From NCBI GenBank assembly GCA_024279495.1, contig JAJRRL010000044.1:257-64256 (forward strand): 64,000 nucleotides of DNA. The letters run 5' to 3'. A program made the position numbers. The stretch comes from Gammaproteobacteria bacterium (GTDB taxonomy: Bacteria > Pseudomonadota > Gammaproteobacteria > JAJRRL01). Positions 57,001-64,000 of this stretch are shown here, one piece after another (position 1 is the first letter of the stretch; the number at the start of each line of letters is the position of its first letter).

Positions 57001-60000
57001 ACTTGTTTCCGCAGCTCATTCCTAAACTTAAAAAAATAGCGCCCAAAATGCCGCTTATAATCAATGAAAATTTCACAGCCAACTTGCGAATCAAGCTTCA
57101 GCGCGGTGAATTGGATGCCATTTTTGTGGCTCTTCCTTTTAAAGAAACGGGCGTTGTTACCAAAGCTTTGTATGAAGAACCGTTTGTGGCCTTACTTCCA
57201 AAAAGTAATCCACTCGCAAAACAAACTTCCATTCACAGAAAAGATTTATCAAAAGAAACGGTCTTACTTTTGGGTGAGGGCCATTGCTTTCGCGATCAGA
57301 TTTTAAAAACCTGCCCGAATTGCTACAAACCAGATGAGCTGCAACAAACCATAGAAGGCACATCGCTAGAAACATTACGCCATATGGTTGCCTCCGGCAT
57401 GGGGATCACTATTTTGCCTAGCACAGCCACGCAAGTAAAACATTACTCAGCGACCCTCTGCACCAAACCATTCGACAAGAACGGACCACAACGAACCGTC
57501 GCACTTGCCTGGCGCGCGTCTTTTCCACGAACAAAAGCAATTGATGCGTTAATTGCTGCACTCAATCAGTTACACTTGCCGGATGTGGTGGTGAAATAAA
57601 ACTAACGGGTGGGAAGCATACGATGCTTAAGTTGACGCCTATGTTTTCACAACGGGGCCCAGGGTAATGCATAACTTTGCTAGCCCCAGCGTTGTCATAC
57701 CGGCGAAAGCCGATACCCAGGGTAATGCACGGTTACGTTTTTCAAAGCAGCCTGCAGATTTGAGCTCACAATAATGTTGGAGCTGGATTTTAAAGATCGC
57801 TAGTTCTTACTTCGTAACAAGGGATCAAGCCTAGGTCCCCGACGTCATTACATTCCTGGGGATGACACCGTTTTTCAACGGTGCAGGCAAGTGGTTGAGG
57901 CTATCTAACTTTCTAGCGCCTGCTAAAGCTGAAACGAAATCATTAAGATGAGTCCCGGCCATGCACTTCGTTTGTCGGGATGACAACATTTTTTAACGGA
58001 TAAAGCCTGGACCCCCTACGTCGCCTTGTTGCCTTCGGGTGACACATAAAGGGTCTCGTTATTCTGGGCGTGGCAACAAGAAGAAAAACTTGCACGATAA
58101 ACTTAACTTATGGTGATGATAACCCAAAACGATGAGACTCTAATTCCTGTGTGACGTACTATAAAAACTCAACTCACACAGGAGAGACTCTCATGAAAAA
58201 AATACTCGCTTCTACTTTATTGGTTTTAAGCGCCACCTCTGCTCTTGCTAGCGGTGATTCAGCTTTATCGATTGGTAGCTACTACGGTAGCATCAACAAC
58301 AATACCGGTTATGTATTGGAATGTTCACAAATGGTTGGCGGTTATTGCGCTAATAATCCTATGCCTGCTAATGGTTATATTCAAATGCTACCCGATCCAG
58401 GCGCAACACAAATTCGAGGTCACATCATGGCTTTTGATAAAGATGTTCCAGGTGCTTACACCGACAACTTGCTATTCACTTATTCTGAACAAGACGATGG
58501 TACTTGGGCCTTTGACATTCAAAGCTTGGATAAAACCATTTCCATCGATCAGATTAGCGCTGATACAGTTGTATTAAATAAGGCGGGTGGTTAATTTTGA
58601 AAGATGCTTGGTTCGCGCTTCGCGCGAACAGCATCAAGACTGGGCCCCCGATGTCACTACGTTGCCTTGGGGTGACACGTCTGGAGGCACTACATTCCTA
58701 GAGTGACACAAAAAAAACCGTTTCGACCAGAGGTAAAAATAATGAAAAATGAAAATGATATTATTGTCGGACAACCTGTCAATGATGCCCTTCAAGAAGC
58801 TGTGTTGCTTCACCAAGCAGAACAACTAGAGAAGCTCCCTGTCGATCAGCAGCAACGTTACATAAACACAAACATGCTAATCACTTTTAAAAATGCGCTT
58901 AGCAAAACAAACAATAAAAAAGAATTTGATCAAAAACGAATGGAAGCTTTTTTATATGCCTTAGCGTCAAAAGCTAATTGGACAATGGGAGAAAACCAGA
59001 AAACTAGGCCTAGCGATACTTTATCGCTTGAACATCAAGAATTACTTGCTTGGATGCATGCGGTGACCTTTAACGGCCTAAGCAAATACATAGAGCCTTT
59101 TTTAAGAAATCTAAATATAGCTAAGCATCGCCATCCCAAACGAGCAAAACCAGGTGTCTGCTGCATAGTCTCCGGCATCATCGGCTCTTTTTTACTGATA
59201 GGGGCGGCAGTAGCAGGGACTTATGGAGCTGTTCTTGCAGTAATCAATACCCTAAAGGGCGGAGGATCGAGTCCTGTTTTTGCCGCTGTAATCGTCTCTT
59301 TTATATGCGCCCTCATTCTAGTACTGCCCTATACTGGCTCTATCTCACTACTAACTAATGGTATTCAGGCAATCAAGGCTCGAAAACACTTCAAAGACCC
59401 TGTGCACTACAACGCAGCCCTTACGAATTATAATCTGGGGCGCTTCTTTTCCAAGCATCATGGGATTAATAAAAGTAATTCTGTTTTGGGCAGCATTCAA
59501 TCAAATGCATTTCATGCATAATAAGTGACATGATCTCTAAAAGACTGCCCTTTTTTGTCACCCTGGGTACCGGCTTTTCGCCGGTATGACAACTCAAGCA
59601 GCGAGGGTGCTAGCGTAATTGTGAATACAAGCCTACACCTTAATCAGATACGTCACCGGGTTCATCCACGCAGGCGATGCTGATTCTAAAGACACATTCA
59701 AATGCTTAGGCTTTAAAGCCTTTTCTTTTTTCGAATCATCTAACTTGCTTTCAGATTTTGGTTTAGGGATAGCGATAACATGCTCTTGTGCTTGTGTATG
59801 CCCTTGTGCTTGTACTTGTGCCTGTTCTTGCACCTGTATGTGGCTTTTCTCTTGTCTTCCAAAAGAGGCTTTAACCGCAGAAGGTGATGTCACTTTCACT
59901 TCTTCTTTCTTAACTTTTTTTGGAAGAGGCTGCACCTGATTCACATGCGCTGCCTTTCTTGCCATATCCACAGCACGCATAGACAGTGTTTGTAAGCCCT

Positions 60001-63000: not shown

Positions 63001-64000
63001 CTCCGACTGTACCTTCATAGCGCATGCTAATTGGCATATTCGCCTGAATGCTTTCATTGAGGCTGACGCTAACTGAATGCTTACCCAGTATGGTTGCCAG
63101 AAGCGAGCGAAACGGTAGTGACTCGGCATGCAAAGAAATAGGCTCTTGCATCCACAATGGGTTATGAGCCAAAGCCAAGGGCTCAATGTCTGCATAAAAT
63201 CCAGTATGATGCACAATCACTGCTTGGGTTTGCTTAGCTGATTGCTGCATTTGATCCATCTGACGACGCGTATGATTAATGCGATTGCCGCTAGTGTGAT
63301 ACAACGAGTGATGGCAGCCTGCAAGAGAGAGAGCCGCTGCAATAACGGATAAACAACTTAATTTTTTCATTCACCTATTTCCTTATAGTGTACGTTCTGC
63401 AACAACCAAAATATGGTTGCCATCATAAAATTGCGCTTGTAGTGGATAATCCTTCAATACGTTTGTTAACACGTCATCGAACGAACGGCCCGTCACTTTG
63501 ACGGTACCATGCCATTGATAATCATGAGTAGGCAGCCAGACCATATCATGCCAGCCATAATCGGCTGCCAAACGCTTTAAGTTGGAACGCAAAGACCCTG
63601 AATAAAACATGGTCGATACATGCTTATGCTGACTCTGCATTGATGCGTGATGCAAGGATGTGGATACATCGCTTACCTGAGTTGGTGTGGTTCCAAATGC
63701 AACGGCTGCAAAAGCAACCAAACCCACTAAAGCATTTTTATATATCATGATGTCTCCTTATAAATTACATCTATTAAAAAAAAATTAAAACGCAGCAAAT
63801 GTATTCTCGTCTTCTGCTGAAGAGCCAGCTAATTCTGATGGATCGGCAACAACTGTTCGCCCGGCCTTATTGTCGTTGATATCGTGCCTTTCTCGATTAT
63901 CTGAAAGCCCGGTTGTTAATGCTGGCAAATGTGCGGCATTCGATACTCTGCCAAAAAAAGAAGCGAAGCAACGATCAGCCTTAGGTGATGCCTTTCTTAA

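Follow-up and report, generated by a model that had tools for sequence, protein, structure and literature searches.

Type IVb pilus genes at the window edge

Positions 59633–64000 of the analyzed stretch of 64,000 nucleotides (the window), which belongs to contig JAJRRL010000044.1 of a gammaproteobacterial genome (GCA_024279495.1), carry genes of a type IVb-like pilus system (Table 1). Four complete, co-oriented, and closely spaced open reading frames (ORFs) on the minus strand encode a TcpQ-like protein (Q), a secretin (SEC), and two bitopic proteins (L and M). A first-pass annotation of this DNA, made from the sequence alone, had placed four overlapping minus-strand genes here, and the ORFs were indeed found at these positions and closely packed. 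The overlap is 4 nt (ATGA) between L and M and 20–32 nt between SEC and L, whereas Q and SEC are separated by a gap of 12 nt. Translation of L likely starts at the ATG at 61821, which yields a product of 414 aa; the NCBI gene call (P0243) has the same length. Upstream of Q, and in the same orientation, a further ORF (the slot ORF) stays open from 64000 to 63788 and ends with a stop codon at 63785–63787, 37 nt ahead of Q; no promoter- or terminator-like site was found in this gap. The GC content is even across the region (42–47%).

Table 1. Features of the operon in the window and slot gene regions in related loci (numbered in the coordinates of the respective locus)
Feature	Position	Strand	Remarks
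Slot ORF, 3′ end (71 codons plus stop)	63785–64000	−	Cut by the window edge
Q, putative TcpQ-family periplasmic protein, 121 aa	63383–63748	−	Complete ORF; Pfam TcpQ
SEC, putative lipoprotein secretin of the PilN/BfpB/TcpC kind, 522 aa	61802–63370	−	Lipobox; Secretin domain; TIGR02520
L, predicted PilO2/BfpC-type (GspL-like) bitopic inner-membrane protein, 418 aa	60577–61833	−	Predicted fold
M, putative bitopic protein of the PilP family, 315 aa, final operon gene	59633–60580	−	Family-level TIGR03021 matches
Palindromic repeat element	59557–59593		Convergent intergenic region 3′ of M
Slot gene region of L001	9054–9548		
Slot gene region of L007	3618–9023		
Slot gene region of L015	5488–9519		
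Slot gene region of L084	13310–19686		
Slot gene region of L085	14659–21512		

Affiliation of the encoded proteins

The secretin carries a lipobox (LSLAGC), whose cysteine (Cys19) is invariant across 28 homologues, and a Pfam Secretin domain (2e-16). Its top match among the NCBIfam models is PilN (TIGR02520; 3.6e-58), with a score of 197 bits that remains under the equivalog cutoff of 288; MshL (121 bits), GspD (65 bits), and SctC (49 bits) score lower. Among the structures in the Protein Data Bank (PDB), the profile of the family matches BfpB (9u5s) at 1e-52, followed by a next-best hit at 3.8e-12 and GspD at 3.5e-11; the structures of PilQ and GspD are matched at 1e-11 or weaker, with values of 1e-09 to 1e-11 also given for GspD. 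Identity to plasmid secretins of the PilN family is 25–29% over the full length. These similarities point to a lipoprotein secretin of the outer membrane that belongs to the type IVb PilN/BfpB/TcpC lineage, which is the affiliation that had been proposed initially. The first-pass annotation had also considered that GspD or Dot/Icm components might match better than PilN, but the opposite was found. An assignment to GspD was rejected at 65.5 bits against a cutoff of 351 (TIGR02517), an assignment to MshL, the second-best model (TIGR02519), at a score of 120.9 bits (cutoff 250) with a match spanning only residues 227–484, and no Dot/Icm family was matched in Pfam or NCBIfam.

The small protein encoded upstream of the secretin, previously described as PilM-like with a signal peptide, falls by Pfam into the TcpQ family (PF10671; 8.3e-08, 32.6 bits, cutoff 27). 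It has a Sec signal peptide without a lipobox. The hidden Markov model (HMM) of the Q family matches (4.4e-08) a gene of a Salmonella plasmid that is annotated as "toxin co-regulated pilus biosynthesis Q family" and adjoins PilN, and Q itself weakly matches (E 0.12) chain R, the small lipoprotein chain in the BfpB structure 9u5s. Q is presumed to be a TcpQ-family partner of the secretin.

L has no match in Pfam or NCBIfam by sequence and none in plasmids by tblastn at E ≤ 1, and a profile search against PDB sequences returned nothing meaningful. Neither PF06864 (PAP_PilO) nor the NCBIfam model of PilO2 was matched by the L family at E ≤ 1 (0/60 in Pfam, 0/26 in NCBIfam). One family member matches GspL_C (7.6e-06), the comparison of L with one plasmid PilO2 by hhalign was weak (P 3.5e-04, probability 37%), and the L-family HMM matches the gene that follows the secretin in an R64-ordered Aeromonas plasmid cluster (1.6e-27). 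According to an exhaustive HMMER search of 1.84 billion representative proteins, the family comprises about 180 clusters at 50% identity, all of roughly 400–425 aa.

An AlphaFold (AF2) model of L built on an alignment of 60 sequences reached a mean predicted local distance difference test (pLDDT) value of 90.7; it replaced an earlier model based on two sequences (pLDDT 47; Foldseek hits to PilO and 3hrg), which was not trusted. The predicted architecture combines a cytoplasmic domain of the actin-like type, a single transmembrane helix (about residues 195–218), and a PilO-like periplasmic domain with a ferredoxin fold. Foldseek searches of the PDB with this model retrieved the cytoplasmic domain of PilO2Bp (4byz; 2.4e-05), BfpC (3vhj; 1.1e-04), and 3hrg, and the periplasmic part resembles PilO (2rjz; TM score 0.51). 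BfpC and 3hrg are also the structural neighbors reported for PilO2Bp (PMC3984277), and the neighbors of L thus coincide with those of PilO2Bp. The predicted fold argues for a bitopic protein of the PilO2/BfpC (GspL-like) type, representing a PilO2-like family that is unseen by current family models.

In M, a transmembrane segment serves as N-terminal anchor; the protein further contains a coiled coil, a beta domain that is conserved (about residues 145–205), and a tail of low complexity. The copy in the window alone matches no Pfam or NCBIfam model; among 26 members of its family, however, 14 match pilP_fam (TIGR03021; best 1.3e-08) and seven match GspC. The M-family HMM also matches the annotated PilP of a Salmonella plasmid (2.5e-04; hhalign P 1.7e-04), and there is a weak resemblance (best 2.2e-06) between family members and IcmG/DotF, a similarly built bitopic protein. 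M is accordingly assigned, at the level of the family, as a putative PilP-type bitopic protein. The initial labels of all four proteins, including the PilO-like and PilP-like ones on the promoter-distal side, thus found support.

Many homologues of M (examined in L004–L007, L015, L020, L069, and L080) end with a peptidoglycan-binding SPOR domain (PDB DamX, 1.5e-14; Pfam SPOR, 6/26). The C-terminal third of M in the window (59633–59960) is a degenerate, low-complexity tail rich in Gln and Lys that aligns only faintly to SPOR, and the tail is entirely missing in the two nearest relatives. Elsewhere in the window, an ORF of 345 aa (18435–19472) without a Pfam match resembles the SPOR-like part of the M HMM in residues 272–341 (2.5e-07); it is probably an unrelated SPOR-domain protein.

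Gene order in related loci

Iterated HMM searches that started from the gene cluster of the nearest retrievable relative (L001; secretin 69% identical) yielded a census of 81 loci from a species-level genome collection, whose hosts are uncultured Coxiellaceae, Legionellales, or unclassified Gammaproteobacteria. The operon is present in 79 distinct genome loci. In L001, the genes for a T2SSE ATPase, a T2SSF platform protein, three prepilin-like proteins (146, 193, and 338 aa), a membrane protein of 164 aa, TcpQ, the secretin, and two proteins of 400 and 197 aa follow each other on one strand; the genes after the last one are unrelated, and the operon ends there. Across the census, the ATPase gene lies upstream of the secretin block in 44 loci, always with an adjacent platform gene, the Q homologue lies immediately upstream of the secretin in 75, and M is the final gene of the cluster in 74. 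Wherever the flank is long enough, ATPase, platform, and pilin genes precede the TcpQ–secretin block and no gene of the system follows the PilP-like gene. With E and F denoting the ATPase and platform genes and p1 to p3 the pilin genes, the order E-F-(p1)-p2-p3-Q-SEC-L-M is common to every near relative (L001 and L003–L007), with all genes adjacent and co-oriented.

The pilin set of the full operon comprises two to three prepilin-like genes, including one for a small major pilin and one for a large minor pilin of about 330 aa. In the relatives, a prepilin motif, G(-1)...E(+5), followed by a hydrophobic helix is present in 115 of 127 pilin-like ORFs, and the +1 residue of the small pilin is Ile in 16 of 17 copies, a residue other than Phe being expected at this position of a type IVb major pilin. 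Matches of these pilins to the N_methyl model are weak, and one copy of the small pilin weakly matches Bundlin. In L076 (1091–3389 and 4583–8651) and L034 (2553–4726), small pilins (four copies with near-identical N-termini) and large minor pilins (three copies) have multiplied in tandem. L085 (339–2828; same genome as L020) additionally contains, beside a shikimate kinase gene and at a distance of about 7 kb from its type IVb-like operon, a further secretin gene preceded by three small genes; this group resembles a type IVa pilNOPQ-aroK cluster, and these bacteria may carry both pilus types.

With the gene identities, the operon layout, and the chromosomal context documented here, positions 59633–64000 very probably represent the half, distal to the promoter, of a type IVb-like pilus operon that is intact and chromosomal, is characteristic of uncultured Coxiellaceae/Legionellales, and continues past the window edge. 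ATPase and pilin genes are missing from the window because it ends inside the operon; their place outside the window follows from their upstream position in the relatives and from the fact that the window is cut off inside the slot gene. The first-pass annotation had described the operon as truncated and lacking these genes, a conclusion that must be revised because it assumed the gene order of R64: the relatives carry the genes upstream, and the operon naturally ends at the PilP-like gene. Its further suggestion of a rearranged locus is correct only insofar as the gene order has undergone an ancient permutation that is conserved. An incomplete operon at the edge of a window should not be taken as gene loss, and expecting the gene order of a model system such as R64 can mislead.

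The remainder of the operon in the same genome

A T2SSE ATPase (P0124) that is 70% identical to the ATPase of L001 (cf. 69% for the secretin) is listed for one NCBI contig, 70,369 bp in length, and the secretin, M, and Q proteins of the window are each recorded on one NCBI contig of the same size. P0124 has no match anywhere in the 64-kb window; given the equal-sized contig record, its gene is inferred to lie in the 6.4 kb of contig DNA outside the window. These 6.4 kb can accommodate E, F, and three pilin genes, which require about 4.6 kb, together with a short slot gene. In the simplest reading, the ATPase, platform, and pilin genes of this genome are situated beyond position 64000 of the same contig, with their adjacency to the secretin block deduced from the relatives. 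An adjacent pilQ–pilV set, which the first-pass annotation had named as an observation that would contradict truncation, is thus indicated indirectly, by the contig record of P0124 and its absence from the window.

The setting of the operon is chromosomal and housekeeping, not that of a conjugative element. The window contains parE, waaA, grxB, a tolC-like gene, ubiA, ubiC, a gene for a major facilitator superfamily (MFS) transporter, parC, and clpB; synteny with the downstream flank of L001 covers ubiC and the MFS and h203 genes. The flanks of L001 comprise lolB, a poly(A) polymerase gene, hipAB, and the MFS transporter gene, and lolB is located upstream of the ATPase gene also in L003 and L004. 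There is no tRNA gene in the 64-kb window, and the ORFs that were scanned around the operon encode neither an integrase nor a relaxase.

This setting bears on the initial proposal of a truncated, decaying conjugative-pilus operon of the R64/PAPI-1 type or a remnant of an integrative conjugative element, which would have lost pilQ, pilR, and pilS and retained four non-functional leftovers. Several features accord with this proposal: no ATPase, platform, pilin, or peptidase gene is present within the 64-kb window, the block is ordered as in R64-type plasmids, where the ATPase follows PilP, whereas a repeat and an unrelated gene follow here, and the tail of M is degenerate where some relatives have a SPOR domain. 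Nevertheless, such a remnant is highly improbable. Not only do the 74 loci in which the cluster ends with the PilP-like gene, the upstream ATPase, platform, and pilin genes of the relatives, and the orthologous ATPase on a contig of the same size speak against it, but the four ORFs are also intact, and the rate of nonsynonymous substitutions (dN) is well below that of synonymous substitutions (dS) in the comparison with L001 (SEC, dN 0.23 with dS saturated at about 3.2; Q, dN 0.33 and dS 2.2; the ratio is not computable for L and M, because dS is saturated). The syntenic housekeeping flanks and the absence of mobile-element genes from the parts examined argue in the same direction.

A second alternative is a functional system whose ATPase, platform, and pilin genes do not adjoin the secretin block, for example because they occupy the opposite contig end at a distance of about 64 kb, with Q-SEC-L-M forming a separate transcription unit behind an unrelated gene. 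What is known of the location of P0124 is the length of its contig, and the definition of type IVb pili in TXSScan permits multi-locus systems (PMC6668835). There is also one locus of this kind in the census: in L009, AAA_14-like and PIN-like genes (7026–9288) immediately precede the tcpQ-like gene, and genes for ATPase, platform, and pilins are absent within 10 kb; L009 may be a genuinely split arrangement. Two other loci that seemed to consist only of Q-SEC-L-M (L084 and L085), however, proved contiguous when the ATPase contig was read, with large slot genes between the pilins and Q. Such loci therefore mostly lost their value as evidence for a natural split, L009 excepted. Since all genes are adjacent and co-oriented in the six nearest relatives, the slot ORF is co-oriented and separated from Q by a short gap without a recognizable promoter or terminator, and the DNA outside the window suffices for the missing genes, a split locus is improbable in the present genome.

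Several observations weigh against an intact, contiguous type IVb-like operon. The adjacency of its two halves in this genome is deduced from equal contig size and synteny, and P0124 could lie before the start of the window rather than past its end. The window's own L and M lack a direct family match, and their assignments draw on structure (L) and family-level matches (M). The ATPase is nearer in sequence to GspE than to BfpD, and a search for a prepilin peptidase of the A24 family was negative for all ORFs both of the window and of the 81 loci (cluster ± 10 kb). Moreover, split genes in a few relatives (L065, L075, and L077) suggest decay in some lineages, and what was read here are genes alone, from which the product and its role are derived.

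In the three loci with split genes, the secretin, L, or ATPase gene is broken into several ORFs (L065, 9974–11520; L077, 9971–12793; L075, 4827–6163), which appears to reflect either decay of the operon in some lineages or frameshift errors in the assemblies.

Features downstream of the operon

Relative to L001, the segment that separates the operon from the MFS gene has been replaced in the window (52800–59600) by oxyR (56532–57599) and orphan genes without family matches. Two of the orphans (58703–59521, 272 aa; 54772–56505, 577 aa) encode paired hydrophobic segments that recall effectors of vacuole membranes. The repetitive extragenic palindromic element noted previously after the operon is a real palindrome, with a hairpin (TACCGGC-TTTTC-GCCGGTA) and flanking arms (TTGTCA/TGACAA). 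A second copy is present on the opposite strand at 57691–57726 (18/18 and 17/18 matches; chance expectation about 0), and no further copies occur in the 64-kb window. An interpretation as canonical terminator was rejected; there is no T-run on either strand, and the element was not called in a terminator scan. Other short direct repeats occupy the intergenic region after oxyR (57846–57881 and 57964–57999).

A hypervariable slot between pilins and tcpQ

The ORF at the window edge indeed runs off the window, as described initially, with 71 open codons. An identification with PilL, as also proposed, found no support, because its tail, which ends in SSAEDENTFAAF followed by the stop codon, matches nothing and sits in a slot of hypervariable content that separates tcpQ from the pilin genes; no significant similarity was found to any ORF in the 81 related loci. 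In the clade of the window, this slot is occupied by unrelated genes for proteins of 164 to 4334 aa, whereas no gene is present in the slot of a more distant clade. The slot protein of L007 (1801 aa) contains an OTU cysteine protease domain (2e-11), the slot of L085 (about 11 kb) encodes an ankyrin-repeat protein beside a gene resembling those of insertion sequences, and the slot genes of L084 encode proteins of 955 and 4334 aa. Several of the smaller slot proteins have an N-proximal pair of transmembrane segments, and none has a Sec signal peptide. A candidate C-terminal motif shared among slot proteins was dropped, as the alignment was unconvincing.

These genes raise the question of whether the operon encodes mainly a secretion device of the kind represented by a type II secretion system (T2SS) or by the toxin-coregulated pilus (TCP) and CFA/III, with the slot genes providing cargo or tip-associated proteins. 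Known type IVb pili, such as TCP and CFA/III, export proteins encoded in their operons (e.g., TcpF and CofJ), and the slots contain effector-like genes, including those for the OTU protease, the ankyrin protein, and the very large proteins (955 to 4334 aa). Furthermore, GspE is the best family and PDB match of the ATPase, L is GspL-like (with one member matching GspL_C), and members of the M family match GspC. By contrast, the slot proteins lack Sec signal peptides, and an N-proximal pair of transmembrane segments fits membrane effectors of the Dot/Icm type better than periplasmic cargo. Because the slot is empty in the more distant clade, its genes are not a core part of the machine, and both the secretin and its partner belong to the pilus (BfpB/TcpQ) type rather than to the GspD type. 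A predominantly secretory function is therefore unlikely, although somewhat less so than a split locus.

It is likewise doubtful, but conceivable, that there is a functional tie between the slot genes and the pilus machine, whether they provide its cargo, its tip proteins, or co-regulated factors of host interaction, and that the operon descends from the thin pilus of an IncI-like ancestor that also gave rise to the Dot/Icm system of Legionellales and was later domesticated on the chromosome. If the slot genes prove to be linked to the machine, a type IV filament would be associated with effectors that target the host in a lineage of intracellular bacteria.

Proposed assembly of the pilus

The full operon would encode a T2SSE ATPase, a T2SSF platform protein, two to three prepilin-like proteins, the variable slot, a TcpQ-like protein, a secretin of the PilN/BfpB type, and bitopic proteins of the PilO2/BfpC and PilP types. 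On the model of the bundle-forming pilus (BFP), TCP, and the thin pilus of R64, the pilins would be processed by a prepilin peptidase encoded elsewhere, and the ATPase would drive the platform protein, resulting in pilin polymerization. L may bind the motor via its actin-like cytoplasmic domain and reach into the periplasm with its PilO-like domain, while M, anchored in the inner membrane, may contact the secretin with its PilP beta domain and, in some relatives, also bind peptidoglycan via SPOR. The lipidated secretin and its TcpQ-like partner would form the outer-membrane channel for the fiber. We infer from the gene content that a pilus is assembled, which may serve in adhesion to a host or surface, in aggregation, or possibly in protein export.

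Comparison with known systems

The TXSScan definition of a type IVb pilus requires a secretin, an ATPase, a platform protein, a pilin, and a prepilin peptidase, the last of which may be encoded apart from the other genes (PMC6668835). The secretin lineage, the small protein of the TcpQ type, and the bitopic proteins of the PilO2/BfpC and PilP types are present in the window; prepilins are found in the relatives, a peptidase was not found near the cluster, and ATPase and platform genes are present in 44 related loci, with P0124 as the record of an ATPase for the genome of the window.

The resemblance to the R64/PAPI-1 variant is greatest in the block of TcpQ, PilN lipoprotein secretin, PilO2, and PilP, which has the same order in plasmid clusters (e.g., of Salmonella), as the first-pass annotation had recognized. 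PilN is also the best NCBIfam match of the secretin, the M family matches PilP (TIGR03021), and the cytoplasmic domain of L matches that of PilO2Bp (4byz). By contrast, ATPase, platform, and pilin genes are located upstream of the block, whereas R64-type plasmids place ATPase and platform after it, and no PilT, PilU, or second ATPase was found in or near the cluster. Searches with plasmid lytic transglycosylase (SLT) and A24 proteins by phmmer revealed no transglycosylase or peptidase, and there is no second ATPase, within 10 kb of any cluster. The secretin remains below the PilN cutoff (197 vs. 288 bits) with an identity of 25–29%, L is not recognized by PF06864 or the NCBIfam model of PilO2, and the setting is chromosomal and housekeeping rather than a conjugative element. 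As gene order, recognition by PF06864, accessory genes, and a mobile-element setting all fail, the operon should not be classed as R64-type.

The closest homologues found outside Legionellales are those of the Aeromonas caviae plasmid pAC1520 (NZ_CP120943.1, 16.3–27.5 kb), whose secretin is 28.9% identical over 98% of its length and whose next gene is the one matched by the L-family HMM (1.6e-27). Its cluster differs in being plasmid-borne and in having the R64-like order of secretin, L, M, ATPase, platform, and pilins; it adjoins conjugation genes of the DotD/TraH type, a lytic transglycosylase, and a second ATPase.

The BFP of enteropathogenic Escherichia coli is related through its secretin, as BfpB (9u5s) is by far the best match of the secretin profile among solved structures, and through BfpC (3vhj), which matches the N-terminal domain of L; weak similarities exist between Q and the small lipoprotein chain of the BfpB complex and between one major-pilin homologue and Bundlin. 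Unlike the BFP system, the operon has a different gene order, no BfpF-like retraction ATPase or dedicated peptidase was found, Q is not a lipoprotein, and the ATPase is nearer to GspE than to BfpD.

In the case of the TCP of Vibrio cholerae, the small partner Q belongs to Pfam TcpQ. The tcp operon has the same local order of pilin, large minor pilin, TcpQ, lipoprotein secretin, and two bitopic proteins. However, ATPase and platform genes are located at the front of the operon (L001) rather than after the bitopic proteins, no peptidase of the TcpJ type was found in the cluster, and L and M show no sequence similarity to a TCP family except for one stray match to TcpS.

Similarities to the T2SS include the ATPase, which is closest to GspE, the GspL layout of L, and the GspC/PilP-like layout of M. 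The secretin, by contrast, scores only 65 bits against the GspD cutoff of 351, there are two to three pilin-like genes instead of five pseudopilins, and a TcpQ partner is present.

Full-text literature searches for type IV or type IVb pili in Legionellales and Coxiellaceae did not turn up a description of this operon. The loci compared here reveal that a type IVb-like pilus operon, with a gene order permuted relative to R64, is conserved in uncultured Coxiellaceae/Legionellales. The operon is a member of the type IVb class, closest to the R64/PAPI variant in block order and in its PilO2 and PilP components and closest to BfpB among the secretins of solved structure.

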